From NCBI GenBank assembly GCA_031268935.1, contig JAIRWL010000010.1, positions 5,288 to 69,287 of the forward strand: DNA of 64,000 nt, read 5' to 3'. Positions 991 through 63,574 of the stretch are shown here, piece by piece. Each line of letters begins with the position of its first letter. The first letter of the stretch is position 1. A program made the translations under genes and the position numbers. Under the pieces are notes generated by a model. The model was not told the DNA's origin. It searched no databases and worked only from the letters and a program-made list of their open reading frames with translations. Source of the DNA: Holosporales bacterium (lineage in GTDB: Bacteria > Pseudomonadota > Alphaproteobacteria > RUG11792).

Positions 991-3495
991 ATGTCGAAAG
1001 ATATTTATAATTTTAGAGAAGTAGAAAAGAAGTGGAATTCAGTTCTATGTGACTATACTCTTCCAAATTCTAAGATTTTGGAAAATCTTGTAAAGAAGTA
1101 TTACGTTCTGGTGATGCTACCGTATCCTTCCGGAAAATTACACATGGGACACATCAGAAATTACACGATAGGTGACGTTTTGGCTCGTTTCAAACGGATG
1201 GCAGGGTATTATGTAATTCATCCGATGGGCTGGGATTCATTTGGGATGCCAGCCGAAAATGCAGCGATGCAATCCGGTGGACATCCTAGAATCTGGACCG
1301 AATCTAATATCGAGTCGATGAAAGAGGTATTAAAACTCTTCGGCTATATGTACGATTGGCCGCGAGAAATCAGTACATGTAGCAAAACTTACTATACTCA
1401 AGAGCAGAAAATATTCCTTGATTTGTTCAAGAATGGGCTAATTTATAGAAAAGAATCTTATGTTAATTGGGATCCGGTAGATCAAACCGTTCTCGCCAAT
1501 GAACAGGTCATCGATGGTAAGGGATGGCGTTCTGGCGCCCTCGTCGAAAAAAAAGTTTTGGAACAGTGGTCGGTAAAAATCACATCCTATGCCGAGGAGC
1601 TTTTATCCTCCCTTAAGGATTTAGAAGGTCATTGGCCTGATAAAGTTATAAAAATGCAGGAAAATTGGATTGGCAAATCAGAGGGGGCTACCATTAACTT
1701 TCCGATCGTCGGCGAAGACAGAGTTATCCCGATTTTTACGACTCGCCCCGACACATTGTTTGGAGCCTCTTTCATTGCCATTTCTCCAGATCACGAGATA
1801 GCCGTAGAATTAGCAAAGAAAGATCCCAACGCCGCCGAATTCATTGCTCATTGCAGGAAAATGTCCACTACCGAAGAATCCATCGCAAGAGCTGAAAAAG
1901 AGGGATGGAAAACTCCTCTTGAGGTTGAGTTTTTTCTCAGGGAAGGAGGAAAGCTGCCAGTTTATATAGCGAATTTCGTTTTGATGGATTATGGAACGGG
2001 CGCTGTTTTCGGCTGCCCAGCTCATGATGAACGAGATTTCGAGTTCGCCAAGAAATACAATCTCCCCATTACGAGAGTGATCGATTCCGCTGAAGAGCTA
2101 CCATTTGCTGGTGATGGGATTCTCATTAATTCCGAATTTCTGAATGGAATGAACATTCAGGATGCAAAAGCCGCGATGATAAATCGCATCGAGGAAATTG
2201 GTGTCGGAGAAAGGAAGATCACGTACAGGCTGAGGGATTGGTTAATCTCGCGGCAAAGATATTGGGGGTGTCCGATCCCAATAATCCACTGTCCCGTATG
2301 CGGCATTGTTCCGGCCGAGATTCCTGTGATTTTGCCGGATGATGTGGCTATAGATGGAGTCGGCAATCCGCTCATGAGGCACGCGACTTGGAAAAATGTT
2401 AAATGTCCACAATGCGGCAAGGATGCGGTGAGAGATACAGATACTCTCGATACGTTTTTCGAATCATCGTGGTATTTCTTGAGGTATCTATGTCCAGACT
2501 GTAATGATCCTCTCGAAAGACGAATAGCCGATGCCGCGATGCCGGTAGATATCTGTATTGGAGGTGTGGAACACGCCGTCCTCCATCTTCTATATGCTCG
2601 ATTTTTCGTATTGGCTCTGAGGGACATGGGATATATATCGGCCGAAGTTCCATTCTCGAATCTCTTGGCCCAAGGAATGGTTTGTCACAAGTCGTACAAG
2701 AACTCGGAGGAAGAATGGCTTTATCCGGAAGAGGTGAACCGTGACAGTAATGGCAAGCTAATCGATAAGACTGGGAAAGAAGTCTTCGAGTTTGCGATGG
2801 AAAAAATGAGTAAATCCAAAAAAAATATTGTTGATCCTCAGTCTATTGTAAATTCTCACGGTGTCGATGCGACGCGACTGTTTATCGTTTCTGATACCCC
2901 ACCGGAAAAGGATTTTGATTGGAATACCGATGCTCTGGATGGATCGTGGCGATTCCTAAACAGAGTATGGAAAACATTTAATAAAATATTTGTAGAATCG
3001 CATGGATGCGAAAACGGGTCAGATTCTCTAATTAAGACGACGCATATTTATCTCAAAAAGATTTCAGAGATGTACAATTCGGTATCTCTAAATAAAGCGA
3101 GTGCTTTCGTTCGAGAATTTTTCAATGAAATCGAGGATGGATTGAAGACTGAAACGAACGAATCACTGCGATTCGCGTTTAAAAATTTTATCAAGGCATT
3201 TTCTCCAATTACTCCAAATATTTGCCACGAAATGTGGCAAATCAGCGGAGAAACGGATAAACCACTGCAAGAATCTGCATGGCCAGATATTGACGAAGAA
3301 TTGGCTACCATCAATATAATAACAATAGCGATTCAAGTTAATGGCAAATTACGCAGAACTTTTGAAGTAGAGAAAGATACGGCCGAATCAGAACTCGAAG
3401 CTAGAGCATTTGAATTGCTTGAAGATTCAATTCAACAATCCTTAATCAAGAAGGTTGTCACAATTAAAAACAGGGTCGTGAACATTGTGATTTGA
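991..3495 (+). CDS. leuS: Leucyl-tRNA synthetase
   Basis: 834-aa ORF with a class I HIGH-type motif (PYPSGKLHMGHIRNY) and KMSKS (MEKMSKSKKN). Length and layout are LeuRS-like. Confidence 0.95.
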   Translation: MSKDIYNFREVEKKWNSVLCDYTLPNSKILENLVKKYYVLVMLPYPSGKLHMGHIRNYTIGDVLARFKRMAGYYVIHPMGWDSFGMPAENAAMQSGGHPRIWTESNIESMKEVLKLFGYMYDWPREISTCSKTYYTQEQKIFLDLFKNGLIYRKESYVNWDPVDQTVLANEQVIDGKGWRSGALVEKKVLEQWSVKITSYAEELLSSLKDLEGHWPDKVIKMQENWIGKSEGATINFPIVGEDRVIPIFTTRPDTLFGASFIAISPDHEIAVELAKKDPNAAEFIAHCRKMSTTEESIARAEKEGWKTPLEVEFFLREGGKLPVYIANFVLMDYGTGAVFGCPAHDERDFEFAKKYNLPITRVIDSAEELPFAGDGILINSEFLNGMNIQDAKAAMINRIEEIGVGERKITYRLRDWLISRQRYWGCPIPIIHCPVCGIVPAEIPVILPDDVAIDGVGNPLMRHATWKNVKCPQCGKDAVRDTDTLDTFFESSWYFLRYLCPDCNDPLERRIADAAMPVDICIGGVEHAVLHLLYARFFVLALRDMGYISAEVPFSNLLAQGMVCHKSYKNSEEEWLYPEEVNRDSNGKLIDKTGKEVFEFAMEKMSKSKKNIVDPQSIVNSHGVDATRLFIVSDTPPEKDFDWNTDALDGSWRFLNRVWKTFNKIFVESHGCENGSDSLIKTTHIYLKKISEMYNSVSLNKASAFVREFFNEIEDGLKTETNESLRFAFKNFIKAFSPITPNICHEMWQISGETDKPLQESAWPDIDEELATINIITIAIQVNGKLRRTFEVEKDTAESELEARAFELLEDSIQQSLIKKVVTIKNRVVNIVI

Positions 3496-5573: not shown

Positions 5574-6938
5574 TTACTGCCCATTTCCTATGTATCTGAA
5601 GTTTTTCGGATAGGTCTCGGTGTACAGATTGCACATATCCATCAAAATTGGGGGATCTCCTGATCGTTTATTCATGAGTTCTGCGACCTTTTCAAAATCA
5701 ATGCTCAAGAAATTGGACCAATTCGTCATGACGACGATCATATCACTTTGCTCGGCGGCCTCGTATGGCGATTCTGCCAAATGAAACCTCGAATCACTTA
5801 GTGATTCTTTTGAGATTATTCTGCTCGTATTGGGAGAATTTGGTGGAAGGGAAGGATCATAAGCCGAAACGAAAATTTTGTTTTTCAGCATTTCTTGAAC
5901 GAGCATCATACTAGGAGATTCGCATAGATCATTTGTATTTGGCTTGTGAGCCAGTCCAAGAATCGCCAACTTTTTATTATTACACAATCCGAATTCGTCG
6001 ATAAATCTCTTAAGGATTTTTTCGGAGATATTCTTGATTCTTGTCGTATTACTTTCCAGGACCGTCTGCATGATGCGAAATTCTAGGCCCAATATGCAAG
6101 CCGTACGAATGATGCCCCTCATCAAAGCCGGAGGTGAACGACCACCAAATCCTGGAGTCACTTGAAGTAGATTCAACCCAATGTCGGGATCCAGCCCCGT
6201 ACCAAGTATCAATTGCCCTACATTTGCTCCAGATTTCTCGCACAAATCCACGAACTCGTTAATAAGTGCAGTTTTTGTGACGATGAAAGCCATGGAAGCA
6301 TATTTAATAAGTTCTGCCGTTTCATGATTAGTGTAAATGACTGGTATTCCAGTTGATATTATTGTCGAATAAAGTTTAACGATCATATCTTCGGCTTTTC
6401 TTGAATCCTGATCGAGACCGATTACTAATCTAGACGGCGTGATGAAATCGTGCATTGCATAGCCTTCTCTCAAAAAATCCGGATTTATGACAACATCGTA
6501 GTGCTCTCCTAGAGTTAAATCCCGGCGTAGAAATTGCATATTTTTTTTGATAATGGAACAAGCTCCAACGGTAGTTACTGTCTTTATGAGAATTACCGTA
6601 TAGCGAGTTTTGCTCAATAGAGGAGATATCTTCCTGATTACCTCGTGAACAGATTCGTCCTGATCTTCTTTGGTAGTAGGACCAATTGCAATGACGAAGA
6701 TATCGGGATTCTCATGAGTTTGATTGAGATCACCCGCACATCTCAATCTGCCATTGTCTTGATGATTTTTCAGAGTTGCACTGAGACTAGGTTCATATAC
6801 CGACACGATATTATTTTTCAAATCTCGCAAGATCAACGGATCGCTTTCTACAATATTTACAGAAAATCCGAATTCACAAAAACACACTCCCGACAGGACA
6901 CCAATGTATCCACCCCCGATGATCGTAATTTTCAGCAT
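5574..6938 (-). CDS. ugd: UDP-glucose/GDP-mannose 6-dehydrogenase family protein
   Basis: 454-aa ORF with an N-terminal Rossmann motif (ITIIGGGYIGVLSGVCF) and family-typical length. The exact substrate is not determinable. Confidence 0.8.
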   Translation of the reverse strand: MLKITIIGGGYIGVLSGVCFCEFGFSVNIVESDPLILRDLKNNIVSVYEPSLSATLKNHQDNGRLRCAGDLNQTHENPDIFVIAIGPTTKEDQDESVHEVIRKISPLLSKTRYTVILIKTVTTVGACSIIKKNMQFLRRDLTLGEHYDVVINPDFLREGYAMHDFITPSRLVIGLDQDSRKAEDMIVKLYSTIISTGIPVIYTNHETAELIKYASMAFIVTKTALINEFVDLCEKSGANVGQLILGTGLDPDIGLNLLQVTPGFGGRSPPALMRGIIRTACILGLEFRIMQTVLESNTTRIKNISEKILKRFIDEFGLCNNKKLAILGLAHKPNTNDLCESPSMMLVQEMLKNKIFVSAYDPSLPPNSPNTSRIISKESLSDSRFHLAESPYEAAEQSDMIVVMTNWSNFLSIDFEKVAELMNKRSGDPPILMDMCNLYTETYPKNFRYIGNGQ

Positions 6939-7033: not shown

Positions 7034-7135
7034 TGTATATTATTTAAAATTTTTTGGGATAATTATTGCTTTGAGAAAATTTCTCCGATTTGCCAAGATA
7101 TTTTTATACCCTACGTAGATTTGAATTGGAGCAAT
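7034..7135 (+). repeat. Conserved 5' leader/promoter region of the small HTH gene cassette (copy 1; copy 2 at 39273-39381)
   Basis: Near-identical stretch in both copies (aaaattttttggga-a/t-tattattg-ttttgagaaa...ccgatttgccaagatatttttatac-ctacgtaga-ttgaatt). Confidence 0.7.
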
Positions 7136-7372
7136 ATGAAAAATGAACTTATGCTTGAGAGACAGCAATTCTCAGACATTGATGGCTTGCTCAGCAAGCA
7201 CAAACGGCGCAATGCATGGACAAAAGCTGAATTGGAAATTCTTAGGAGAGGTTTTTTGAGTGGTAAAAGAATTAAGACGATCGCTTATGAAATTGGCAGA
7301 TCAGAAACGGCCGTTCATAAATTCCTCAGTCGCTCCGGAATTCACCGGGCCAATAAAATACGCACACAATAA
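7136..7372 (+). CDS. Small GcrA/Myb-like HTH protein (paralog of 39382-39618)
   Basis: About 78 aa from the ATG at 7136. WTKAELEILRRGFLSGKRIKTIAYEIGRSETAVHKFLSRSGI resembles the GcrA N-terminal DNA-binding pattern (W-T-x-E-x-x-x-L...IA..LG.T.NAV..K..R.G). A clear paralog with a shared upstream region lies at 39.3 kb. Confidence 0.6.
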   Translation: MKNELMLERQQFSDIDGLLSKHKRRNAWTKAELEILRRGFLSGKRIKTIAYEIGRSETAVHKFLSRSGIHRANKIRTQ

Positions 7373-7596
7373 CAGAAAGCAAATTCAAAGCACTTCGAAT
7401 TGGTATCGAGATGATGAGGGAAGATTATGAGAAATTAAACTAAGCCTGCGCGCGATGTTCATCAGCTCTCCACGGCAGGTTTTCCGAGGCTGCGACAAGG
7501 TCCGACACCACCGGGGAGGAGTCCTGCCCCCTCGGCCCCGACTCTATGCTCCCCGGGGTTGGAGGGAGCCGGGATCTCTCCCTCCTCCCCTCCCAT

Positions 7597-10500
7597 TCAA
7601 GCCTTTTTTCCTGCACCTGCCGCTTCTCCCTCCTCTTCTTCCTCATCCTCGCCGTCCGAGGGAACCTGGATTGATTCGATTGTGGCCGTGATCTCTTCCA
7701 GCTTCGGAGCTATAGATTCGGCATATTCCAGAACCTCACCGAACTCAGCGTTTTGACTTGTGTATTCGACTATAGCATTTATTGCTTGCGCTGTTGCGAT
7801 ACCCTCACTAATCCCTTTCCTCAAATACTCATCGATGGGGATGACGAAAGGACCTCCTCTCTTTTGCCAATCTTCTAAGCTCTCCTGAAAAGACTGCGCA
7901 GCATAAGCAGTCAAGAGTGCCTTGTCTTTGGCCCCACTCCCGAGATACTTATACCTCTCACTCGTGAATGGCCAGCTCCCCATCTCCAAAATTGCTGGGT
8001 CTGTCACAGTGTCCTCCTCCGCGGACCTATCCTTCTGCCTAGACTTGCGGATCTCCCGGAACGAACTGCGTGACCACTCGTGCAGGTTAGCGACCATATC
8101 TGTCGTTATAGCTAGTTGCTTCAATGCGACTTCTAAACCAACGTATTCGGTCAACTCCATTCCTCCCAGCTCGCTGTCCGGTTCCTGCTGTGGAAGCCCC
8201 GCCAATATATCCTTCAGACTGAGGACTATCCTGATAGCTCTCTCCGCGACTTGGTCCATTAAGCTCGTCCCAAAACGTTCATGGAAGTCATAGGTTTTCA
8301 TAAAACTCTCCATGGTCTCCAGCCTGTTCTTCTGTATTTCTTCGGCTTTCTTTTCCCGAGAAATTTTCTGTAATCTATTGAGAGCTAGAGCTCTGTCACT
8401 CACCCATTGCATATACCTACTGTCTTCCCCGGACAGTTCTATCCTTAGCTCCTCGGACACGTCCGACCAATTCTCTAAGGCAGTCTGCAATCGGCGTTCG
8501 ACCCATGCAACCGTGTCTCGCTCCGGAGAATCTTCAGCAAGGAGCGACCTAAAATTCTCCTCATCAGCTGTTAAGGCCCCTTCCTTGTCGGCCAGGTATT
8601 CTCTTAACCCCCGGAGCCCTTTCTGTATTTCTATTACGACTCTCAAAGGACCTTCAACTAAAGTGACGTATTCAGACCAAGGTAAGGACGAGGACTCCGT
8701 GCTCCCGGATGGGACTCTTGATAGCAATTCTTCCATATCGGCTGAAATTCTGCCCGCCCGGTCGTAGAGCTCTTCCTCGGGATCCTCCTTACATCTGATA
8801 TCCATGATCTCCTCTGTAAGCTGGGCGATGATCCTTTGCCTTACCAGCTCTAATTCTAACCGAGCAATGCAAAGGGAATCATTTTCGATCTCCATGATGC
8901 GCTTTTGTTTCTCCTCCTGTGATTCTGCCAGTTCAATTTCGATCTGCTTGAGGAGCTTTTGGTTCTCCGCCTGCAATTTTGCCAGTTCATTCATCAGAGC
9001 AGTTTCTGCTTCCGGGGATACTACAAAATCCTCACCGTCCCCTGCTCCTTGAGCCCTTCCTTGGCCTGGTTGATGCATCAAATCATTCATCTTTCGCAGA
9101 GATTGTTCCCAAGATTTCGCTCGTTCCATTACATTACGCAGCCTTTCTCTGAGGTCGGTACTTAACTTTCCCTGCCCTCTACGTCGTTTGTGCTCCGACT
9201 GAATAAACTTCCGGAGATCCTGCTCGAGCTGATCTAACTTTGCTGCCCCCCGCTCAGCTACCCGCACTCTCTTTGTAAAATCCTCCTTAGGAACTCGCCC
9301 CTCTAGCTCCTGCTGCATCTGATCATCCTGGAATGATTCCAAAACCTTCTTGAAGGCCAACAACGGACTTTCGAATCCGACGACTACCCATTGCCAACCC
9401 GACATTCGGTCGTCCCCTAAACTTTCCCCTATCTTCGAATGTACCTGTTCGGCTATCTCTGCCATCGTTTCCAAGCCTCTCTCTTTACGGGCCCACAAGT
9501 CATGTACCCGTAAGAGGTCCTCCCATTCCTGGTCATTTGAGAGGGACGGCCCCTCCGGGAGGTATTCCATTCTCCTTCGTAAATGGGCAAATACTTCTTC
9601 TAACTCCCTCAATCTCAACTTGGCTTCCTCCAACAGGTCCGGGACTTGCTCTGCTCTGACACCTTCCCCGGCTAGTAAGGTTCCCTTGTATGCCTGCTCC
9701 AAAGCTTTTTTAGTTAATTCGATTCGTCTGCCTACCCCTGCTCCGAATCTCCCTCTGAAGGTGCGGTTGCCTCCCTGCCACTTATCCATATTCCGAGCGG
9801 CCCGCTCTTGCGTGTCCAGGCGGGCTAGAAATTCTTGGATCTGAGACAACAATCTTGCCTGTATCCGTGGAAATCTGGAAGGGACTACTCCCGCTGGTTC
9901 GATCCCTTGGCCACCCGAAGCAATCTGCTCCTGCAACACCCGGAATTCTGCCTCCATCCTCCCGCATTCGGCTTGCAAGCTTGCTGCCCGTTCTAATAAA
10001 GCTCTCTTGGTTAGATATGTTCCTCGGAAATTCGGGACCCACCGAGCGAATTTTTCCCGCAATTCCCCATATCCCCACTTTCCTTTCTCGGCTATCTCTT
10101 CGATTAGTCTCCAGACCGGAACAACCCTTGAAAGGGCCGCCCCGACGATGCTCCTCAATCTCGGCGCTTGAGCCTGAAGCGATGCCTTGGTCCGCCCTAG
10201 CTCTGCCCGAAGGGCGATCTGCTCGAGTTCTTTGGTTGCCTCGATGGCCTCGCGCACCTGCTCTTGGAGGCCCTCTGTGAAGTCTTGCCAAGTCGAGAGG
10301 AGCCTATCCCCTTCAGGGGCCCCTCTAAGCCTGACTACAGAACTCTCGGATAGTTGAGGAATCAGCCTGGCTAGGACGGTCAATGGAAGTTCTGCCCTGC
10401 TCACCAATTCTGAAAATCCCCAAGCCTCTAAATCCTCCCGCCCACGCAGTAAACGCCCCGCCTCCTCCAAGCTGCTCACGGCCGCCACTATTTCGTCACC

Positions 10501-35472: not shown

Positions 35473-36276
35473 TTGTGTATTTCGGTGACTAGTGTGAAGA
35501 GGTTTTTTAGCATCAACAGAGCTCTGAGTCTGTCGGTAGTGTCTGGTGTGTTACTTCTGGGCTCGGAAGTAGTCGGAGAATATAGTGGCAATGAGCGCGT
35601 GACTGTAACGTTCACTTCCGATGGTTCGAATGTGTCTGCTAAATTCGATGGCAATGGGGGCAATTCCCGGGATCCTAGGATTGTAGATAAGGTTTTTGAC
35701 ACAGGTGGAGTGATGGAATACAGTAGGGGAGCTCTTGAGCTTCAGTTACGGTTGAAGGATGGAGCCAACGGCGCGCGGTGGATCGAGCTTTTTGGATTTA
35801 AGAAGCCTGGAGAACCTGACGACGCTCTGAGAGATAATCTCATAGCGCTGAACTTTGTTTGTCTCGGAAACGAGGAGTTTAGTTTCTGTCCAGAAGGCGG
35901 CTTATGGAAGCTACCTACTACCAGCGTAGATACTCAGAAATTTCACTTAGGGGGATCGGGTCGCCTTCAGTTTACTTCCCTGCAATATCCTAAGAGAAAT
36001 CCTGATGGATCGTCTGTGGAAATCGAATTCGACTCTACGATCCCGTTCACGGTCGCCAATAAAGAGTATCAATCGGGAGAATATATCCTTAAAGGATCCC
36101 TCATTCAATCGAAATTGGGTCATGCAATTGGTATGGCGGAACAATTGACGGGGAGATCACGAGGTGGTTGTTTATGGCGCTTGTGGTCAGCGATGAGAAG
36201 AGTCTGTTGTTGCTGTGGGGATATGATCCCGGCGCATCCCCCTTCCGTCGCCGCTAGAACTCTTGATTCAATTTAA
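35473..36276 (+). CDS. Secreted hypothetical protein with a C-terminal poly-Cys motif
   Basis: The likely start is the GTG at 35494 (VKRFFSINRALSLSVVSGVLLLGSEV). Moderately GC-rich. C-terminus ...WRLWSAMRRVCCCCGDMIPAHPPS. Confidence 0.5.
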   Translation: MCISVTSVKRFFSINRALSLSVVSGVLLLGSEVVGEYSGNERVTVTFTSDGSNVSAKFDGNGGNSRDPRIVDKVFDTGGVMEYSRGALELQLRLKDGANGARWIELFGFKKPGEPDDALRDNLIALNFVCLGNEEFSFCPEGGLWKLPTTSVDTQKFHLGGSGRLQFTSLQYPKRNPDGSSVEIEFDSTIPFTVANKEYQSGEYILKGSLIQSKLGHAIGMAEQLTGRSRGGCLWRLWSAMRRVCCCCGDMIPAHPPSVAARTLDSI

Positions 36277-36695
36277 ACCTGCGTCTGTTCTTTCCGGAGC
36301 GCATCGATCACAGTCGCCTTGTCGCTAAAAAAAAGGCAGGCGTCTCGCTCCGGAGGAGGGAGATGCTCCGAAAGAATGAGGACGACGACTCACCGGGGTA
36401 AGTAATAGCCTGTCTATGCAGAGTACTTTCCATGACTTGACAGGTCTGTTGTGATGATGATAAGGAAGCTACCAGCAGCGTAGCTTCCCTGGACGACCAC
36501 CTAGCTACCATCCTGTCAGATTATCGATTCTGTCAAAGATGCAGGTTTCGTGAAAAGGCCTATAAAAAATAGAGCAAGAGGTTTTCTCTCCAGTATAGGG
36601 GCTAGCCCGGAGTTAGAATTAATAGATTTGGAGGGATGAATTCCAGGAGCTACGTGATAGGCCTGGGAGGCACACTGAGTGGTTAAACCTAGCCC

Positions 36696-37625
36696 TCACT
36701 TCATTAGGAACTTCATGATCCCTATTATGAAACTACTATCACTTATTTCTGGATACCTTTCTCCATGACTAAGGTTGAAAATGTTGTAGCCGTATTCTTG
36801 GCCTCCATGGAATAATGGATGACTTGCATACGTTTGGAGATACGTCGCTAACTGGGCCGCTTCGGAGATAGTCTTTTCCAGGATTGCGTTGTATTTTCCA
36901 ATATCTGGTCCGCCCTTTTCCAATTCTGGTATTATGGATCGGATCGTCTCCTCGCACTCGACCAAGTTGTTAACCTTCGCCCTTAGATCCGGATTGAAGG
37001 CCGCCGTCGAATTAAAGATGATATTTAGGGCTAAGACTATGAGGCGGGCTCTCACGAGCACCTCGGATATAGTTCTTGGTAGCTCCTTATGGATCTCGAT
37101 TAGAAACCCCGGAAGCCTGACAGATACCAGCTTGGGAGAAGTGGAACCACGAGCTAGACCAATGAGAATGAAAATACTGGGTAAGTGTCTGACGATGTCC
37201 TCGGCCCGTGAGAGAATTGGATCTGCCAGGCAGTATACTCTCGCCGTGTACTTTGGGTAGACGTTCCTCTTAGCCGCCAACTCGGCCGCAAGATAGAGAA
37301 TGACCAGGCAGCCTCGAGCGTAAGCAATATTAGCTTTTTGGTCGGCGGCCGGGCCTATCCGATCCATAAGGGAGTGTATCATATCACCCACTACCTTATA
37401 TCTGGCAGGATTGCGACGTCCATGAGGGTCCAGCTCCGGGGGGAGAAAGTGCGCCCAGCTGAGCATGAACCAATTGGCATAGTCTATATGGATGTACTGA
37501 TATCGTTGAGATGCACCTGATGAATTAGCTGTGCTGGGACCGCTACAGGTACCCTCTCCCAGAAGGCCTGAGCAGAATAGCATCCATAGCAATCCTGTTT
37601 TGACTTTCGAAATCATCTCAACCAA
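36696..37625 (-). CDS. Secreted hypothetical protein (309 aa)
   Basis: N-terminus M(VE)MISKVKTGLLWMLFCSGLLGEGTC (signal peptide). No recognisable domain. Confidence 0.55.
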   Translation of the reverse strand: MVEMISKVKTGLLWMLFCSGLLGEGTCSGPSTANSSGASQRYQYIHIDYANWFMLSWAHFLPPELDPHGRRNPARYKVVGDMIHSLMDRIGPAADQKANIAYARGCLVILYLAAELAAKRNVYPKYTARVYCLADPILSRAEDIVRHLPSIFILIGLARGSTSPKLVSVRLPGFLIEIHKELPRTISEVLVRARLIVLALNIIFNSTAAFNPDLRAKVNNLVECEETIRSIIPELEKGGPDIGKYNAILEKTISEAAQLATYLQTYASHPLFHGGQEYGYNIFNLSHGERYPEISDSSFIIGIMKFLMK

Positions 37626-37827
37626 AAACTTAAGAATATGACTCTGTGGTGAGAAATTTTCACCTTAAGCTCGGACTAGTGGCGAGGAGCAGCACGTATA
37701 CCCTACAGTACCCACTAGACATAGCTCCTCTTATTGTACACTAAGGAGCTGAAAAACGACATCTCGTTGGTGGCGGAAGGAGGAGAACTATCGCCCCCCT
37801 GCGCGCCCCTTATCGATACGGCTGGAC

Positions 37828-38793
37828 CTATGATGGATTGACTTTTCTGGACAGGCGATGACATAACGTATATCCTCCCCAGAGTCCGAGACCTACCGCC
37901 ATGACTCCTCCCGTTATCAGCCCGAATCGGGCTATCTTCGAGGCTTGGGCCACTGCCTGATTAGTCTTTGCCAATTCGGAGCTCAAGGTTTCCGAGACCG
38001 AGAACTCCAAGGACTTTACCGTGGAGCTGACGTTCGCTTGGAGGGACAGGAACTTGGCATCCCATGATTCCAATCCTTCCGGTAAGCCCGAGAGTTGATT
38101 TAATTGCGTCAGAATCTCCCCATCAGATCCCGTACTCTGGACTATCTTCTTGGCCGCGTCCAATATTTCTGAGGTGTCGTTTGCGACTTCCTCCACCTTA
38201 CCCAAAATTGTAGGCAAATTCAATAATATCGAGGGGCACGGGTCTATGCTGCAATTCAGACTCAGGTACCGTAGATCTGGACTTATCTTTACGAGGTGCT
38301 CGGCCCAGTTCGCAACCCACTCTCCGGCCGGGAGATTTAACAACTGTATGCAGACTGTGTGGATTGTTGCTGCCTTTGGAGGGGGACCCAAACTCTGGTC
38401 GATATAATATGTCTCTAACCAGTTGCTGAGAAATGGAAAAGTATTTGAGGATAGCTCCCCCAAGCAATCGATGAAGGGTAAAGAGTTAAGCAAATCAGTA
38501 TACCTAGTCCAGGGGGCAAGCGGAGATCCAGATGGAATAATCACGATGCTCCCAGCCGAGTGGGTATCTGATCCGACCCTGAACCTCCCCGAATTCAATG
38601 CCATAATGACTTCGTGTTCAGTGGCCTCTCCCTGCTCATACCGCAATTCCTCATTCAGAGGTATTTTTCCGATCTCGGAGAGCAATTTTCCGCGTCCTGC
38701 GATCCCCAATCGCGTCCCTGGCCCGGCCCCTTCGGGGAATACATCCCTGACCAAACCACTGACCAGCCAACTCCAGGCCCACTGCGGAATCAC
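37828..38793 (-). CDS. Hypothetical protein with a C-terminal TM anchor (probably the 3' part of a split gene)
   Basis: 321 aa from a GTG that is part of a G7 run. C-terminal FGLITGGVMAVGLGLWGGYTL TM helix. It has no signal peptide of its own. Confidence 0.5.
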   Translation of the reverse strand: MIPQWAWSWLVSGLVRDVFPEGAGPGTRLGIAGRGKLLSEIGKIPLNEELRYEQGEATEHEVIMALNSGRFRVGSDTHSAGSIVIIPSGSPLAPWTRYTDLLNSLPFIDCLGELSSNTFPFLSNWLETYYIDQSLGPPPKAATIHTVCIQLLNLPAGEWVANWAEHLVKISPDLRYLSLNCSIDPCPSILLNLPTILGKVEEVANDTSEILDAAKKIVQSTGSDGEILTQLNQLSGLPEGLESWDAKFLSLQANVSSTVKSLEFSVSETLSSELAKTNQAVAQASKIARFGLITGGVMAVGLGLWGGYTLCHRLSRKVNPS

Positions 38794-39059
38794 CCCCCCA
38801 CGGCGAGTAATTTGGATCCTATCCCCCAGAATTGGCTGCCTTCTTCCACTGTCGTGATAAGGCTTAGTGTGCGATCTTCCTTAAAATAATCGTATAATAA
38901 ATTGACGGGGTATTGTCTAAAATAATATTGTAAAAGATCCTGTTGAGGTAATGTATCGATATCCAATGTGAAATCCTCTGCGCCGCATGCGGGATTGTTG
39001 AAAAAAATGCCCGATAACATGAGAAGTATCGATTTTATCAAAAATTTCCTCTGTCTCAT
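38790..39059 (-). CDS. Signal-peptide-bearing ORF (probably the 5' part of the same split gene)
   Basis: The ATG at 39059 gives MRQRKFLIKSILLMLSGIFFNNPACGAEDF. It ends ...LLAVGG-TGA inside the G7 run (38793-38799). One additional G would read AVGGVIPQWAW into the downstream ORF. Confidence 0.5.
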   Translation of the reverse strand: MRQRKFLIKSILLMLSGIFFNNPACGAEDFTLDIDTLPQQDLLQYYFRQYPVNLLYDYFKEDRTLSLITTVEEGSQFWGIGSKLLAVGG

Positions 39060-39272
39060 TATACTTATACCTCTCTCGGTGGAATGGTGAATGGGCCTAC
39101 CCCGCGAGTATGAGCCCCAATAACTAACCTCAGTCTCCCACAAAGATGTTATAAAAAGCTTAAATGAACCGATAAAATCTGCATCAATGTTGAAAAAAAA
39201 TCTAATAAATAATGAGGTTTGTTATTAAAGCTTTTTATTTCCATTTTTTTGAGAAACTTTACTTCGGAAAAT

Positions 39273-39381
39273 TGTATATGAAGATATTTAAAATTTTTTG
39301 GGATTATTATTGTTTTGAGAAACCTATTCCGATTTGCCAAGATATTTTTATACGCTACGTAGACTTGAATTATGGAGCAGT
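39273..39381 (+). repeat. Conserved 5' leader/promoter region of the small HTH gene cassette (copy 2)
   Basis: Aligns by eye with 7034-7135 (see copy 1). Confidence 0.7.
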
Positions 39382-39618
39382 ATGAACCAAGACACCAGTT
39401 TGAAATCTTCACGAGTCCCGACCATTGAGGGCTTTGTGAGTAAGCATAAGAGACGGAATTCATGGACTATAGCTGAATTTGAGATTCTCAGAAGTGGATT
39501 CAGCAGCGGTAAAAGAATTAAAACGATTGCTTATGAAATTGGACGATCAATGACGGCCGTTAATAAATTCATTAGTCGTTCTGGAATACAGAGAAATCGT
39601 AAAATCCGCCATGAATAA
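39382..39618 (+). CDS. Small GcrA/Myb-like HTH protein (paralog of 7136-7372)
   Basis: MNQDTSLKSSRVPTIEGFVSKHKRRNSWTIAEFEILRSGFSSGKRIKTIAYEIGRSMTAVNKFISRSGIQRNRKIRHE. Strongly similar to the 7136 gene in both the protein and the 5' region. Confidence 0.6.
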   Translation: MNQDTSLKSSRVPTIEGFVSKHKRRNSWTIAEFEILRSGFSSGKRIKTIAYEIGRSMTAVNKFISRSGIQRNRKIRHE

Positions 39619-39734: not shown

Positions 39735-40424
39735 ATGCATTCCATCCTAGTCATCGATGATGATATTAGGTTATTGAATTTGGTTGTGGATCTTTTGAGG
39801 GTGGCAGATTTTGCTGCCGTCGGAGCTAATTCGGTTGCCGAGGGATTGGCGGCCCTTTCTTCAAGGAAATTCGATGCTATCGTCGTCGATTGGATGATGC
39901 CCTTCGAGAATGGCATAGAATTTATAACAAGATTAAGATCGACCGCTTCTTATGCTCAACATATTCCGGCCATGATGTTGACCGCCTTGAGCGATCCAGA
40001 CGATAAGGTGGTCGGATTTGAAAGTGGTTTTGATGATTATCTCACCAAACCTTTCGAAACAAAAGAATTGATCGTTCGGCTGAACGCTATGATTCGGCGT
40101 TCAAAAATTGCACACACCCATCATGTCCCAGTTGTGAAATTCGGGTCTTGTGTCTTCGATACCGATTCGGGAGAATTGTTCTTAAATTCCGAATCCGTCA
40201 ATTTATCGGAAAGTGAATTGATGCTACTGAAGACTTTGTGTTTACGCCCAAATCACCCCTTTACTCGAGAAGAATTAGCTAAAAAATTCGGATTTATAGT
40301 TTCTGATAGAACTATAGATGTTCAGATTACTCGTCTGCGGAAAAAGATAGGAGATGATACTAGAAAGCCATTTATTATCAAGACTATAAGACATATCGGG
40401 TATGCCTTAGCCACAAAACCTTAA
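39735..40424 (+). CDS. OmpR/PhoB-family response regulator
   Basis: Receiver domain (LVIDDD, DAIVVDWMMP, LTALSD, YLTKPF) plus a winged-helix output (ITRLRKKIGDD...IKTIRHIGY). Confidence 0.9.
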   Translation: MHSILVIDDDIRLLNLVVDLLRVADFAAVGANSVAEGLAALSSRKFDAIVVDWMMPFENGIEFITRLRSTASYAQHIPAMMLTALSDPDDKVVGFESGFDDYLTKPFETKELIVRLNAMIRRSKIAHTHHVPVVKFGSCVFDTDSGELFLNSESVNLSESELMLLKTLCLRPNHPFTREELAKKFGFIVSDRTIDVQITRLRKKIGDDTRKPFIIKTIRHIGYALATKP

Positions 40425-49285: not shown

Positions 49286-50443
49286 CCCAAGCCCTCCCCG
49301 GATCGGCCCTGCGGTGAATCGCTCGCCGCCTCCTCCTGAATGTGCGGTGATAGTCTTCACTTCAGGAATCTACCATCTCCATTCCTTGTCAATTACCTGA
49401 TGTCGTCCGGGATGGGATCCCGTGAGGAATTCTCCCGAAGCTGTCCCGGCGCGAGCCGGGTCTTATGGAAAACTGCCTCAACCTCCTGCTAAAACTGCCC
49501 CCCGTGCCCGTCTCCTTTGCCACCTCGGGTACCCCCTCATGGGGGCCGCCACCTGTGACTCGCATTCACACAAGCTTCCTCCAACCCGGGCCGCCGGCTA
49601 AACCAGCCCCTCTACTACCGACCTACTGTATCGACCTGCCCTGTAAATCTAGCTGTCGCCTGGACTTGAATTCTCCGGCTCGTTGGTGCAACACTCCCCA
49701 TCCTCTGGAAGTCGAGAGGCAGACGGGCCTTCCGTAATCAAGACTCCCCAGCTCTAGGAGGATTCTTGGGGGCCCCAGAGAGGGGAGCTCCACAACCCGG
49801 AAATCCACTGGGGGGCCCTTAACGTAGGTACTACCGATAGGGCGAACCGCCCGCCCCACTTTAATGGGAGGGCTGTCTGCTCCTTTCTGGGAATATACTG
49901 TTGGGCCTTTCCTGTCGTGTCTACCTCACTGTCGCCCCCCACCTCAAGCAGTGGGGGGTATCTGCTCCGGAAACGAATGTCCTGAGGGCCGGGAGTGAAT
50001 AACCCCCAATTCCCCCACACATTTGGATTGGGCCAGAAGTCTTATCTGCCCCTTGGGCTCTCTGCCTGCTCTTCTACTGGGGGACTACACCCCCCCTTTA
50101 AACTGTGCTCTCACCGGTAAATACCGCCCTTGCCATGGGGAAACTCGAGACGATCACACGGACGGGTCTGTCCAGAAGGCTGTCCCTGTCAGGGTGTTCA
50201 AGTCGCCCTCTTCTACTGGGGGCCTGGCCCCCTTTGCAGGAACTCGCTTCTCAACCTACGGTCCCTTATCCTGGGGCTCCTCGAAACCAGCTCTCTCACC
50301 GGATCTTGTCAGCTAGCCTGAGCTAACTCAGAGCCTCGAGGCGGTAGGAGTTTGAATGAGCCGGACTCAAGAAAGACGGGCTGCCCCAGAGGAACAATTT
50401 ATCTCCCTTCCTCCTGATTCCAGAGACATAATTCTCCGACCCG

Positions 50444-51247
50444 CTAATAACCAGAACGCATTGGGCGCCCATCTGGCCTCGGGCGGATCATGCCCTGAGG
50501 GGGTCGAAAATCCGGCTGACGGACGCCAGCTTGCCTAAATCCACCAGAGCTGGTTGGAGCTATTGGCCGGTCCTGTGGCTGATGGGGGCCTTGCTTGCCT
50601 TGATCCACTGGGTCTCCGTAACCCCCAGGAGATGTCGACCGACGGGGCCCCCCTCTATGACCTGCGGGACCCGCTCCCTGACCTGCTACCTTCCACTGAG
50701 GACCGGGGAAATATCCTTGCCCTCTACCCTGGCCCTGAGGGGGGACTTGCTTTGCTGGAGGCATAGCTGCTTCGTAACCTCCAGTTGGGGACGAGCTCCG
50801 GAGCCCACCACGATGTCCTCGTTGACCAGCTCCCTGGCCGGCTGCTTGTCCCTGGCGATGTCGGCCAGGTCCTCCTCCTGTCCGATATCCTCCCCTAACG
50901 TGAGGGCTTGTGTGTCTTTGGTGCGGACCACGACAGCCCGCAGCATCCATACCAGCCCCCGTAACCTCTGTGCTCCCCTGCTGCTGTCCTGCAGGAGCCG
51001 GTATGGAGGAGGAAAGAGGCGCTCCAGCTTGCCATCCTTGCCCCATGCCCCCTTGGATCGGCCCGTTTGGGGCACTGTGCTGTCCATCAGGCCCCCGTTT
51101 CATCTGCCCCCCTCTCTGCCCATACCCTGACCCATCTGATGGGGCGCCCCGTGCTGCAGCCGACTCAGGCTGAGGCGCTGCTGCCATCGTCTCAATGCTC
51201 AGCAAACCAGCAATTAAAAGAACTCTGTCAATTAACTTATTCACCAT
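50444..51247 (-). CDS. Secreted Gly/Gln/Pro/Arg-rich repeat protein (267 aa)
   Basis: N-terminus MVNKLIDRVLLIAGLLSIETMAAAP (signal peptide). Repeats AGQGAG.(R/A)GHRGG(L/P)R(S/R)S(S/T)SP(T/G)GGY. Transcribed divergently from tssB. Confidence 0.5.
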   Translation of the reverse strand: MVNKLIDRVLLIAGLLSIETMAAAPQPESAAARGAPSDGSGYGQRGGQMKRGPDGQHSAPNGPIQGGMGQGWQAGAPLSSSIPAPAGQQQGSTEVTGAGMDAAGCRGPHQRHTSPHVRGGYRTGGGPGRHRQGQAAGQGAGQRGHRGGLRSSSPTGGYEAAMPPAKQVPPQGQGRGQGYFPGPQWKVAGQGAGPAGHRGGPRRSTSPGGYGDPVDQGKQGPHQPQDRPIAPTSSGGFRQAGVRQPDFRPPQGMIRPRPDGRPMRSGY

Positions 51248-51491
51248 TCTTCACCCCTTATTATTTCCATGGTCTTCTGCATACTATTCTAACAGACAAA
51301 GATTGTGATTGCAAATGAACCGTGCTTCCTGCCACTTTTGGTGAATTTTTTTATGTGGAATAATCTTTTTATCTGAATCGCCTAAATTTCTCATTGATAA
51401 GTTAACTAATTTTAAAGATATTTTGTCTTAGTATGGCAATAGTGATGTAATCATAGGAAGAGTTTTGTTTTTAGATTTGAGGAATTCGTGA

Positions 51492-59626: not shown

Positions 59627-62600
59627 ATGTTAATAATGGTTTCCAATAAAGAAGGGCGAGCTTACAGCAAAAGGAGACGGGCCCGTCAGGTATTAATCAC
59701 GACATTGTCTTTGGTTATGTTAGCTCCGCTGAGTACCGGGGCCAATGCAGCCGACCACATTCAACCCACATATTCAGCTGAAGTTGAGGAATGGCTAGGG
59801 CGGACCGAACGCTTGCAAGAACACCAATTGAGGCTGCTTATGGATGAGGTTCCTGATCAATTCTCGCAGGTGGCGGATTATTTTGGGCTTATTCGCGCCG
59901 GAATTAACCTCCTACAGGACGAACCCGCGGCAGGGGCTGCTGTAGATCCCCTTCTCCAGCGCCTCATAGAGGATACGCGAGACTGCATCCTGTGCCAACG
60001 TCCACCAAGAGATCAACTATCTGGCGCTCTGACAGAACTCCAAAATCTCAGAGACCAACTCCAATGGGTCAGAGATAAATTAGGGCCCATATGGACCAAT
60101 CCGCCAGTTTCTCCGACGGGACCCTCTGATCTCCCCGGAGCAGGAGCTCCCAATCCGCCACCTCTTGATCCGATGGCGCCCCCTGCTATCCAAGGAGCTC
60201 CGGAACCAGATGCCGCCCCCAGTCCCGGGACCGATGCAGCCGCCCACTTTCAACCCACCTATGCAGCTGAAGTTGTTGCGTGGCTAGGGCGGACCGAACT
60301 CTGGCTAGCACACCAAATGAGTCTGCGTGTGGCTCAGGTTCCTCCACACTTCCCAGAGGTGATTGATTATTTTGTGCTTATCCGCGCCGGAATTACGCTC
60401 CTACAGGACGAACCCGCGGCAGGGGCTGCTATAGATCCCCGTCTCCAGCGCCTCTTAGAGGCTACTCGAAACTTCCTCCTGTTCCAATCTGCCCCAAGGG
60501 ATCAACTATCTTTCGCTCTGACAGAACTCCAAAATCTCAGAGACCAACTCCAAGGGGTCAGAGGTAACTTAGGGCCCCTATTGCCCAATCCTCCAGTCCC
60601 TCCAGTTGCTCCGACGGGACCCGCTGATCTCCCCGGAGCAGGAGCCCCCAATCCGCCGCCTCTTGATCCGACGGCGCCCCCTGCTATCCAGGGAGCTCCG
60701 GAACCAGCTGCCGCCCCCATTCCCGTAATGACAAGTGAACAGTGGGGAGGCGCTGTCCAATCGTGGAAAGCGCAGGTGAAAGGATTGATAGACCGCCAAT
60801 CAGCTCAGGACCGGAGTGGTAGACACTGGACAAGGGACCAACTCCCTTACTACTTAGACTTGCTCCTTCTTGGTAGGCAGGTGTTGGAGCAGAGGCCCCC
60901 TAATGAGGGACCAGAGCTAATGGTCACCCTGTTGTGGGAAGTCCACGATGTGACAGTGGAATTCCTCGAATATATGGTTGCGACACCACCTGAGAGAGTC
61001 TCAGCCTGGGAAGCTTTCCGTGTGGCCACAGCTAATTTTCCTCCTGATTGCCGCCCTACTGCCAATAGGGGGACTGTAGCTCCGGCAAACCCGTCCCCGG
61101 CTCCTCCCCCATCGGGGCAAACCGCACAATTGCGAGGAAGTATTCGCAAATGGCTCGATGAGTATACCTCAAAATCTAGTGGAGACGGGACTGAGATGAC
61201 TCGTAACGCTCTATTAGGCTTTCTCTCTACTGGCTTGAGGCTTTTGGAGAACGTTGCTTATGATTGCGCGGGGTATTTCGATCTCCTTCTTGATTGGGTA
61301 TCCACACTACAATCTCAAATTGAGTTGTTGGACTGTTTTATGCTTAGTGAGTGCCCGTCCTCACCAGATACTGGCCATCCTACATTCTTTTCAGCCCCAA
61401 TAAAGGCGTTTCTATTGCAGCGTGGGTTGGACCCGGCCACGCTATCCACTGCCGGGTATCAAGTCGTGTCCGATGGAGCAAAGGCGCTTCTGTTGCTTTT
61501 GACGGTCCGCTGCGTTAACTGGATTTACTACCTCCTCCCAAGTAATCCCACGGCGCTGTTGACGGACGGGCTAGGATTGATTAAACAAAATGATTTACCC
61601 CCCTCTGTCCTCATTCCTGTAGCGCTGCGGTTGCATGATTTCGTAGATAATTTTGAATTCCCTTCATGTATGAGTCACTTGCCGCCTGAGTTTGCGACGC
61701 TTCCGAATGACTTAGCTCAAGCCCGGGAGTCCCGGCGACTCCTGCTAAACCATTTGCAAACCCCGTTATCTCCCACAGACTACCAGGCTTCGTTAGCTAA
61801 GATGACAACTCCTTTGGATGCCCAGCCGGGACCTCATGTAAGTGACCTAAGTACTGCTGTCTCTGAGTCCGATACCGCCGCGAGATCCTTCAGCGAAACC
61901 TATGGAGATGTAGCTGGAGCCCCACCGCCCGACCTGAACATGGGTGCTCCCCCCAGCCACCCTGTCGATTCCGATCCAGAAGCCGATAGAGGCCCAGGAG
62001 AACCCTCTGGAGATCCAGCCGTAGGCGCCCCACGTCCCGATGCGGAAATGATTGACCCAGACAACCCAGATGGGGAGGATGATGAGCATGAAGCCCCCAG
62101 TGTCGGATTCGACGGAGAGGCGATAGTCGACCCCGTTGTCCCCACAAGCCCTTTGGAGACCCAAATGAGGCCTCTCCTCGTTCCGTTGTATGAGGGGCTG
62201 GACCTTTTGGAGCAACTTGTGTCCAGTAATACGGCTGATTTAGACCTGATTGCCGACGTATCTACCAATATCTATGAAGGACTTCACCCGATCCGTCAGT
62301 CACTTCATGCTATTAGAGCAACCGATCCAGAATCTTTCGCCCGGCTCGACGACGAATTGACCGCCCTCCATGACAAGCGGCAGAGGGTAATGTGCCTATT
62401 CGCAGCTAATTTTTTTCCGACTGCCTTTGCCCTGGCCAATCGGAGTAAACAACGTATAGAGATTATGCTTAGCCTACCGAGAATAAACCCCTTTTCTTTC
62501 GATCCCCAGGTGCGGATGTTGTGCATCGCCTTACGGGTAGCGGAAATGGATGTATCCTATTCCAGACTTCCGCCAGAGTTGAGGAACTTGAGAGACGCTT

Positions 62601-63139
62601 TATATGATATATTGCAACAGTTTCCAACTATCCTGTCTGATATCAAAAGGCGGCTTCCCCCCGATCATTACGCCAACCTACACCGAAGTCTTGTGGCTGT
62701 GCCCTTCCCCCTCCACGGCGACACCGTCGAGGAAGAAGAAACAGAAGAACTCCCGGGAACAGGCCTACAAGGGTGGATCACATCATCACAATCGCCGCCT
62801 GCCTCCTTCTTACCGGGATCTCGAGGTGAATCATTCCCAGCCCCTGGAGCGGGAGGCGAACCGAGAGGCCCATTGGCGATAATGCCACTTGCTTTATTAA
62901 ACAACCATGCGCTGTTCAGAGATGTGAGACTTGAAGACCGGGTTTTCAAAGTAGAAACGACTGTCATACGTCGTCGAGATGATGTTAGGTTGTTGGGGCT
63001 ACCTCCCCTCTCAGACCAAAGTCTAGAACGAGGAATACGTAGAATGTTCGACACCGATACCCGGGAATTATCGCACCTGATAGTAGGCACTCAGTTGGTC
63101 GAAGTCCGCCGTATTCCTCAGGCGCCCACCCGACGATAA
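59627..63139 (+). CDS. Large secreted repeat protein (1170 aa)
   Basis: N-terminus M(LIM)VSNKEGRAYSKRRRARQVLITTLSLVMLAPLSTGANA (basic n-region plus hydrophobic core). Two 163-aa tandem modules, Pro-rich linkers and an acidic segment. No recognisable domain. Confidence 0.75.
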   Translation: MLIMVSNKEGRAYSKRRRARQVLITTLSLVMLAPLSTGANAADHIQPTYSAEVEEWLGRTERLQEHQLRLLMDEVPDQFSQVADYFGLIRAGINLLQDEPAAGAAVDPLLQRLIEDTRDCILCQRPPRDQLSGALTELQNLRDQLQWVRDKLGPIWTNPPVSPTGPSDLPGAGAPNPPPLDPMAPPAIQGAPEPDAAPSPGTDAAAHFQPTYAAEVVAWLGRTELWLAHQMSLRVAQVPPHFPEVIDYFVLIRAGITLLQDEPAAGAAIDPRLQRLLEATRNFLLFQSAPRDQLSFALTELQNLRDQLQGVRGNLGPLLPNPPVPPVAPTGPADLPGAGAPNPPPLDPTAPPAIQGAPEPAAAPIPVMTSEQWGGAVQSWKAQVKGLIDRQSAQDRSGRHWTRDQLPYYLDLLLLGRQVLEQRPPNEGPELMVTLLWEVHDVTVEFLEYMVATPPERVSAWEAFRVATANFPPDCRPTANRGTVAPANPSPAPPPSGQTAQLRGSIRKWLDEYTSKSSGDGTEMTRNALLGFLSTGLRLLENVAYDCAGYFDLLLDWVSTLQSQIELLDCFMLSECPSSPDTGHPTFFSAPIKAFLLQRGLDPATLSTAGYQVVSDGAKALLLLLTVRCVNWIYYLLPSNPTALLTDGLGLIKQNDLPPSVLIPVALRLHDFVDNFEFPSCMSHLPPEFATLPNDLAQARESRRLLLNHLQTPLSPTDYQASLAKMTTPLDAQPGPHVSDLSTAVSESDTAARSFSETYGDVAGAPPPDLNMGAPPSHPVDSDPEADRGPGEPSGDPAVGAPRPDAEMIDPDNPDGEDDEHEAPSVGFDGEAIVDPVVPTSPLETQMRPLLVPLYEGLDLLEQLVSSNTADLDLIADVSTNIYEGLHPIRQSLHAIRATDPESFARLDDELTALHDKRQRVMCLFAANFFPTAFALANRSKQRIEIMLSLPRINPFSFDPQVRMLCIALRVAEMDVSYSRLPPELRNLRDALYDILQQFPTILSDIKRRLPPDHYANLHRSLVAVPFPLHGDTVEEEETEELPGTGLQGWITSSQSPPASFLPGSRGESFPAPGAGGEPRGPLAIMPLALLNNHALFRDVRLEDRVFKVETTVIRRRDDVRLLGLPPLSDQSLERGIRRMFDTDTRELSHLIVGTQLVEVRRIPQAPTRR
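59750..60728 (+). repeat. 2 x 489-bp in-frame tandem duplication
   Basis: gccgaccacattcaacccacatattcagctgaagttg at 59750 against gccgcccactttcaacccacctatgcagctgaagttg at 60239. The protein modules H(I/F)QPTY(S/A)AEV..WLGRTE...LIRAGI.LLQDEPAAGAA.DP.LQRL...LTELQNLRDQLQ...GAGAPNPPPLDP.APPAIQGAPEP.AAP are repeated. Confidence 0.85.
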
Positions 63140-63304: not shown

Positions 63305-63574
63305 GGGGTGTCTAGAGATTGTCGGGCTTATAGCATCAGACATTTAATCTGAACTGCTGCTTCACAAATGAACTCACTCCTTTAGTATATCTCGTTACGA
63401 TTCCTCATCTATCCTCGCAACCTCTCAAGGTCGTTTCATTATCCTGGGGGTGTCTAGAGATAGTCGGACTTATAGCATCAAACATTTAATCTGAACTGCT
63501 GCTTCCAAGGAACTCACTCTTTTAGTATATCTCGTTCCTATCCCTCTCTAGCCTCGCGACCTCTCAAGATCGTT
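63305..63574 (+). repeat. Two copies of an approximately 130-bp noncoding unit (period 142 bp)
   Basis: ggggtgtctagagat.gtcgg.cttatagcatca.acatttaatctgaactgctgcttc...gaactcactc.tttagtatatctcgtt...cctcgc.acctctcaag.tcgtt at 63305-63435 and 63447-63574. Confidence 0.75.

Follow-up and report, generated by a model that had tools for sequence, protein, structure and literature searches.

The core cell-cycle circuit of alphaproteobacteria is made up of GcrA, CcrM and CtrA. GcrA combines a DNA-binding domain (DBD, residues 1-45) with an unstructured linker and a domain that binds sigma70 region 2 on a CCCH zinc motif; within the DBD, the m6A pockets consist of R33, N34, I37 and G38, and bases are contacted by H41 and R42 (PMC5887438). 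It has been reported missing from Holosporales (PMC7987155). Another characterized protein of comparable fold is the Cbp1-type CRISPR repeat-binding protein 2lvs, which has the pattern (W/L)T.EE...L......G....IA..LGR....V...L...G in common with the family described below; Cbp1-type proteins, however, are archaeal, consist of tandem repeats and have another genomic role, whereas the proteins considered here are single-domain. The general fold is also common to Myb/SANT, homeodomain-like and sigma70 region 4/LuxR-GerE HTH domains, some of which Foldseek and Pfam touch weakly, but without a match at the Pfam threshold, and from the Trp triad of Myb (PF00249) our proteins have W28 alone, the other two positions being F40 and F63.

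The two genes analysed here, copies A and B, lie in a 64-kb stretch of Holosporales DNA, which we refer to as the window. They belong to an uncharacterised family of Holosporales regulators, within which they stand for a new variant that is duplicated and has fewer domains. Longer members of the family (such as MBQ7524053.1 and MDR1391561.1) are like the window proteins in the N-terminal domain and in promoter architecture, and partly share their neighbourhood, namely a response regulator gene and rpsA. Unlike these long forms, the window proteins stop after the HTH, without the C-terminal domain and most of the linker.

Two short genes and their relatives

The genes and their RBSs are located as follows.

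7136..7372, plus strand: copy A, ORF for a 78-aa short-form HTH protein
39382..39618, plus strand: copy B, ORF for a 78-aa short-form HTH protein
7128..7131, plus strand: RBS GGAG of copy A, 4 nt ahead of the ATG
39374..39377, plus strand: RBS GGAG of copy B, 4 nt ahead of the ATG

A first-pass annotation of this DNA had proposed two paralogous genes of about 78 aa at 7136-7372 and 39382-39618, and ORFs are found exactly there; the core motif that it quoted, which runs from KHKRRN(A/S)WT.AE.EILR.GF to TAV.KF.SRSGI, is likewise correct. The two proteins are 64% identical, and identity between the coding DNAs is merely 68-78%. GGAG is common to both copies, with the degenerate variants GGAA, GGGG and AGAG at three related loci, L001-L003. 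In the record of one gene caller copy B yields a 60-aa product from an internal GTG; we favour the 78-aa reading because the ATG, the GGAG and a stretch of exactly 27 residues ahead of the Trp are common to all five short-form genes. Neither window protein contains cysteine, and each has a single Trp (W28). In the AlphaFold model of copy A, helices span residues 30-42, 46-53 and 57-67, the core reaching pLDDT values above 90, and the N-terminus is disordered; the protein also bears a basic arm, KHKRRN, and a basic tail.

Between the two copies dS is about 1.6, i.e. saturated, and dN/dS is 0.17; the latter ratio is 0.08-0.12 among orthologues, and 0.12-0.17 when copy A is compared with its paralogue and the orthologues. 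The orthologues from L001-L003 are 66-68% identical to copy B versus 60-61% to copy A. Since dS is saturated and dN/dS is low, copies A and B are old selected genes, neither recent duplicates nor pseudogenes, and the substitution pattern indicates that they are real, anciently duplicated genes under purifying selection.

A word-indexed search of 5.8 billion proteins with copy A as the query matched the two window proteins alone, and NCBIfam has a family for neither of them. An exhaustive HMMER search, for which copies A and B supplied the profile, returned 240 relatives, the best single-domain ones being proteins of 140-190 aa with an N-terminal HTH domain and a conserved C-terminal domain. 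Standard long-form members measure 145-190 aa and are composed of the three-helix HTH, a disordered linker and an alpha/beta C-terminal domain; over the N-terminal ~50 residues they share 40-60% identity with the window core, and a long-form profile retrieves copy A at E 1.1e-16. The recognition helix, GRSxTAVNKF(L/I)SRSGI, is almost invariant across the family and present in the window proteins. The long-form C-terminal domain, of ~70 residues, follows the pattern YLK.KG..I...Y.LN.KP.S..KLLLLANRLR.E...PIF; no Pfam model describes it, and in a Foldseek search with a long-form model it gave no significant match.

The relatives from named sources come from MAGs of Holosporales and Alphaproteobacteria and are labelled "hypothetical", "transposase-like" or "IS30 family transposase", annotations that are misleading for this family. 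A scan of GTDB at one genome per species yielded 21 loci, one family gene in each genome; the genomes are all MAGs of Holosporales or other alphaproteobacteria, obtained from the rumen and the termite gut. At L001-L003 and L065 the genes are short, coding for 77-81 aa that align with the window proteins from end to end, and at L004-L021 they are long forms. A metagenome scan for short-form peptide patterns gave 600 matching stretches, with no relative among them. The family is an uncharacterised one, and to date its known members are confined to Holosporales that have not been cultured and to MAGs of related alphaproteobacteria. Two proteins from the exhaustive search have unusual compositions: in P0003 (352 aa) four complete tandem copies of the family HTH and an incomplete fifth one precede a C-terminus that is Cys-rich and GcrA-like, and in P0008 (317 aa) the family HTH is fused to a RadC/JAB domain.

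In a tree of the 52-residue core the short forms compose a clade with 84% bootstrap support, and only 3% of replicates join copies A and B as sisters. When twelve long-form C-terminal domains served as tblastn queries, neither the window nor L001-L003 showed any remnant of that domain. The short-form clade probably descends from an ancestor that had lost the C-terminal domain in a single event. The absence of a domain that most family members bear could also mean that copies A and B are decaying remnants, i.e. pseudogenes of long forms truncated at the C-terminus, but we regard this as exceedingly unlikely: dN/dS stays at 0.08-0.17, length is nearly constant (77-81 aa) in five genomes, the start codon, the promoter and a purine-rich RBS are all conserved, and the truncation arose once and was inherited thereafter.

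Relation to GcrA

The first-pass annotation had likened the core of the two proteins to the GcrA DBD and noted that the rest of GcrA is absent. The second statement agrees with our results, as the window proteins end after the HTH; the first one holds at the level of structure, where the proteins form a three-helix HTH with the GcrA DBD as best match, but not at the level of the Pfam GcrA model, which is unmatched. In the HMMER comparison that it had suggested, with Pfam GcrA and Myb models, the window proteins gave no match even at E<=10, an outcome that it had itself listed as a refutation. Their sole Pfam match is HTH_58 (PF19575), below threshold, with 19.8 and 17.8 bits (E 7.5e-4 and 3.1e-3) against a gathering score of 23.8 bits. 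Among 56 family members, 18 touch Pfam GcrA weakly and below threshold (best E 4.8e-5), 18 touch Sigma70_r4_2 weakly, and one touches Myb.

When the model of copy A was compared with the PDB by Foldseek, the top match was the Caulobacter GcrA DBD, 5yiv_A, with a target-normalised TM score of 0.87, an rmsd of 1.3 A over 45 columns and 27% identity, at E 0.087; there was nothing in this search at E<=0.001. A profile of the 56 family sequences placed 2lvs first in the PDB (E 2.4e-9) and the GcrA DBD second (E 0.051), and hhalign aligned the family profile with the sequence of the GcrA DBD over 40 columns with a probability of 90.6%. Pairwise BLASTP against GcrA revealed no similarity. All similarity of the window proteins to GcrA thus falls short of conventional significance thresholds. 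The likeness to GcrA (PF07750; 5yiv/5yiu/7ye1) extends to alphaproteobacterial origin, a three-helix domain with equal helix lengths, and a set of corresponding core residues (GcrA W3 and copy W28, W15 and F40, I24/A25 and I49/A50, G29 and G54, A35/V36 and A59/V60, R42 and R66, G44 and G68). The long-form model, as opposed to the window proteins, also shares the GcrA layout of a DBD, a disordered linker and a C-terminal domain, although the last of these is alpha/beta and has no conserved Cys/His zinc motif, unlike that of GcrA. In comparison with GcrA, the window proteins are missing the sigma70-interacting CCCH zinc domain and have gained a basic N-terminal arm of ~27 residues.

It is plausible that the family DBD is a remote homologue of the GcrA DBD; since Pfam GcrA is unmatched, the relation is one of remote homology rather than membership, and because three-helix HTH domains can converge on similar shapes, the likeness could also be convergent. 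The window proteins themselves are not GcrA, and they cannot use its pre-recruitment mechanism, since the sigma70-binding domain is missing. We also considered P0003 as a bridge to GcrA, but it scores 26.0 bits with Pfam GcrA, below the cut-off of 26.9, and has no PDB match to GcrA, so that its support for such a bridge is weak.

If the window proteins were a degenerate GcrA orthologue reading CcrM-methylated GANTC sites, one could understand why, in an alphaproteobacterial host, the GcrA DBD ranks first among structural matches and second among profile matches, and why the long form is laid out as GcrA is (PMC5887438). This is nevertheless very unlikely. Besides the unmatched Pfam GcrA model, there is no CCCH zinc domain, and cysteines are altogether missing (PMC5887438). 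The residues of the m6A pockets and base contacts are replaced (PMC5887438): in the hhalign alignment R33 corresponds to E/M, N34 to T, I37 to H/N, G38 to K and H41 to S, and R42 alone is kept, as R66. GANTC is absent from 19 of 20 family promoters, and Holosporales are reported to have no GcrA (PMC7987155). In the window as a whole, GANTC occurs 298 times versus 225 in shuffles, so it is not depleted there. The pattern [DNS]PP[YFW] was found once among window ORFs of at least 150 aa, as NPPF in an unannotated, unconfirmed 161-aa minus-strand frame.

A more far-reaching possibility, which we regard as speculative and rather doubtful, is that the whole family is an overlooked GcrA descendant in Holosporales, in which the GcrA-type DBD survived, while the zinc domain gave way to another C-terminal domain in the long form and no such domain is left in the short form, duplicated here, with an autoregulatory promoter that has stayed nearly unchanged throughout the order. 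If true, it would mean that a core cell-cycle regulator was rewired into a different transcription factor in obligate endosymbionts. A family with a GcrA-like DBD, with different or missing partner domains, an unusually strongly conserved promoter and a response regulator gene as a recurrent neighbour, offers a tangible candidate for the way in which uncultured endosymbionts of protists rebuilt their regulation.

A probable promoter conserved throughout the family

Upstream of each copy we distinguish the following features, of which the -35 and extended -10 elements are putative.

7041..7127, plus strand: upstream block conserved ahead of copy A, spanning the promoter region and a short 5′ UTR, 91% identical to 39285-39371
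39285..39371, plus strand: conserved upstream block of copy B, 87 nt, 91% identical to 7041-7127
7045..7059, plus strand: TAAAATTTTTTGGGA element of copy A, A/T-rich, partly palindromic, UP-element-like
39289..39303, plus strand: TAAAATTTTTTGGGA element of copy B, counterpart of the copy A element
7071..7076, plus strand: putative -35 TTGAGA of copy A
39315..39320, plus strand: putative -35 TTGAGA of copy B
7091..7099, plus strand: putative extended -10 TG-C-CAAGAT of copy A
39335..39343, plus strand: putative extended -10 TG-C-CAAGAT of copy B

The ~100 nt of near-identical upstream sequence reported in the first-pass annotation are thus seen as an 87-nt block with 91% identity, and a 25-mer from this block occurs exactly twice in the window versus zero times in shuffles. 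What had been taken for the leader of a duplicated cassette, however, is most likely a promoter common to the whole family in 19 genomes. Indeed, a single upstream architecture was found in 20 promoters from 19 Holosporales genomes, i.e. in every family member that could be aligned. It starts with AAATTAT-n-TAAAATTTT(A/T)TGGGA(C/T), followed by about 10 A/T-rich bases, and ends with TTGAGA, 17 nt, TTTGCn(A)AGAT and a TATA-like stretch; in abbreviated notation it reads AAAATTTT(A/T)TGGGA, TTGAGA, 17 nt, TGn-(C/A)AAGAT. The 17-nt spacer was counted in both window copies (winA and winB) and in L006, L012 and L014. In most genomes a 12-bp palindrome, ATAAAATTTTAT, lies inside the first promoter element. 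The TTG of the putative -35 is invariant across the 20 promoters and the TTTGCnAAGAT box is nearly so, with the stretch nearest the start codon being the least conserved part of the alignment. Promoter identity amounts to 76-90% between genomes whose synonymous sites are saturated.

The family-specific promoter (AAAATTTTWTGGGA ... TTGAGA - 17 nt - TGnxAAGAT) is present in both window copies, and the boxes AAAATTTT(T)TGGGA and TTTGCCAAGAT both lie within the copy A promoter stretch 7041-7110. With at most one mismatch, TAAAATTTTWTGGGA has 18 matches in 255 kb of Holosporales DNA versus 0.18 in shuffles; 17 of the 18 are directly upstream of family genes, and the remaining one is inside mutL. 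Within the window, exact TTTGCCAAGATA occurs at copies A and B only, and neither the first promoter element nor the TTTGCnAAGATA box has above-chance occurrences elsewhere in it, island promoters included. A scan of metagenomes with the promoter DNA pattern returned 43 loci, of which one (L059) is a true family promoter and the others are A/T-rich chance matches; for so large a database the complexity of the pattern is insufficient.

Irrespective of how its parts are assigned, the pattern of conservation identifies the upstream block as a family-wide cis-element under selection, and the two copies have similar blocks because selection keeps the promoter in every genome, not because of recent duplication. 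From the spacing and conservation of its boxes, the block would be a sigma70-type promoter with an UP-like element, a -35 TTGAGA and a weak, TGn-extended -10. The TAAAATTTTTTGGGA element, to which we assign the UP-like part, could also be an operator. A generic scan for sigma70 promoters and terminators called nothing at either locus, the promoter being missed because the -10 box matches at only 3 of 6 positions. Two other promoter assignments were rejected: a sigma54 reading of TGGGAT-N5-TTGCT in copy A, the -12 GC of which has been kept neither by copy B nor by the orthologues, and a conserved TATA 6-8 nt past the AAGAT box as an alternative -10, which has no -35 partner at 16-18 nt.

A non-coding block that is better conserved than the coding sequence could also be expected if the leader were a cis-acting RNA element, such as a riboswitch or an attenuator, instead of a promoter. 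The probability of this appears close to negligible, as RNAalifold found zero consensus pairs in the 20 sequences, an Rfam search of the whole window detected two tRNAs only, none of them at the leader, and the conserved blocks are spaced like -35 and -10 boxes, with conservation lowest next to the start codon.

Gene neighbourhoods, GC-rich islands and proposed function

Each copy has a flanking gene that can serve as an anchor for comparison between genomes.

5574..6938, minus strand: UDP-glucose/nucleotide-sugar dehydrogenase gene (ugd), NCBIfam TIGR03026, E 1.4e-83, anchor for copy A
39735..40424, plus strand: OmpR/PhoB-type response regulator gene, NCBIfam PhoB/OmpR-type matches, followed by rpsA, anchor for copy B

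The ugd gene adjoins copy A as well as the short-form genes of L001, L002 and L065. In L002 the short-form gene is directly followed by rpmF-plsX without an island, and in L065 its neighbours are a murC-like gene and ugd. A GC-rich ORF comes after the short-form gene in L001, and one GC-rich Myb-like gene occupies that position as an insertion in L003. The latter (2768-3412), from a termite-gut Holosporales MAG, codes for a two-repeat Myb-like protein (Myb_DNA-bind_6, E 1.9e-13), which looks eukaryote-like and could be an effector. The orthologue flanks rpmF, plsX, pheS and xseB are not in the window. On the other side, a response regulator 55% identical to that of the window adjoins the long-form genes in L006, L016, L017 and L059, and rpsA is found near the family member of L018 and that of L007, and at a distance of about 4 kb in L021. 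Because the response regulator and rpsA neighbour long forms elsewhere, copy B occupies the older neighbourhood of the family, and the recurrence of the response-regulator adjacency in distant Holosporales genomes hints at a functional link.

Both copies are found next to steps in base composition caused by GC-rich islands, which have 50-61% GC against a background of ~40%.

7440-20000: GC-rich island
24153-28259: GC-rich island
35473-39143: GC-rich island
49300-51250: GC-rich island
59627-63139: GC-rich island

GC content rises next to copy A from ~0.41 to ~0.50 past 7.4 kb, and falls next to copy B from 0.49 to 0.39 at ~39 kb; the copy A stop codon is about 70 nt from the rise, and the promoter region of copy B abuts the GC-rich segment. 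The steps beside both genes are therefore real, as the first-pass annotation had it. Its suggestion that the genes regulate the islands with which they are associated, or mark the boundaries of a module that was duplicated or mobilised, is also favoured by the GC-rich gene that follows the orthologue in L001 and L003, but did not withstand comparison with the other loci, and we consider either version very improbable. Orthologues on the ugd side occur with or without a GC-rich gene, that of L002 being followed by rpmF-plsX without an island and that of L065 lying between a murC-like gene and ugd, and the promoter motifs are absent from island promoters. The copies face their islands in opposite ways, copy A being tail-to-tail and copy B head-to-head with its island gene; the repeat ends with the promoter and the gene, without further extension; and the duplication is ancient, with saturated dS and with copies A and B not being sisters in the tree. 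In addition, with about six islands in 64 kb, we estimate at roughly 1 in 10 the probability that any given pair of genes would both be found at island edges. The link between the HTH genes and the islands looks coincidental, and a shared leader beside compositional islands need not mean mobility.

The island genes code for large repeat-rich proteins, some with signal-peptide-like N-termini, and no Pfam domains were found in them. Examples include a 1368-aa ORF with 294-nt tandem repeats and a 1170-aa ORF with ~490-nt repeats. The 7.4-20 kb complex contains pairs of segments of 146-217 nt that are 81-85% identical (12527-12743 and 14541-14757; 18647-18833 and 19799-19985; 17350-17495 and 18833-18978), which suggests that paralogous island genes share upstream regions. 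A tRNA-Ser(GGA) gene, 14886-14976, lies amid this complex.

Overall, we think it probable, though by no means certain, that copies A and B encode stand-alone HTH regulators from an uncharacterised family, with a promoter under selection and with the islands being incidental. Their most likely function is that of a stand-alone, possibly autoregulated DNA-binding regulator. Helix 3 (T-A-V-N/H-K-F-x-S-R) would bind a specific DNA sequence, with help from two basic segments, the KHKRRN arm and the tail, and, as there is no partner domain, the 78-aa protein would act by occupancy, as a repressor or an architectural factor. It may plausibly regulate its own promoter: because the recognition helix and the promoter element are both nearly invariant, autoregulation is the most economical first hypothesis, and sequence conservation makes it a plausible property of the family promoter.

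The main rival to a stand-alone regulator is a role as a DBD-only competitor, in which a long form would be encoded elsewhere in the genome and the short pair would compete for its sites in a dominant-negative or anti-activator fashion. Short and long forms should recognise the same sites, since their recognition helices are almost identical, and family genes were counted within the 64-kb window of a 98.8-kb contig, so that a long-form paralogue, or a C-terminal domain encoded on its own, may lie in another part of the genome. We nevertheless judge this role unlikely, as no long form or C-terminal domain was found in the window or at the loci of the other four short-form genomes, and the GTDB scan returned a single family gene per genome; moreover, copy B resides in the response-regulator/rpsA neighbourhood of the long forms, which suggests replacement rather than coexistence.

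A few other features of the window deserve mention. A Phd/YefM antitoxin and YoeB/ParE-type toxin pair is located at 22080-22642 in a low-GC (34%) stretch, adjoined by a hexapeptide-repeat transferase gene at 23096-23785, and near the right end of the window, at 63305-63546, a unit of ~140 nt is tandemly duplicated with 88-95% identity.
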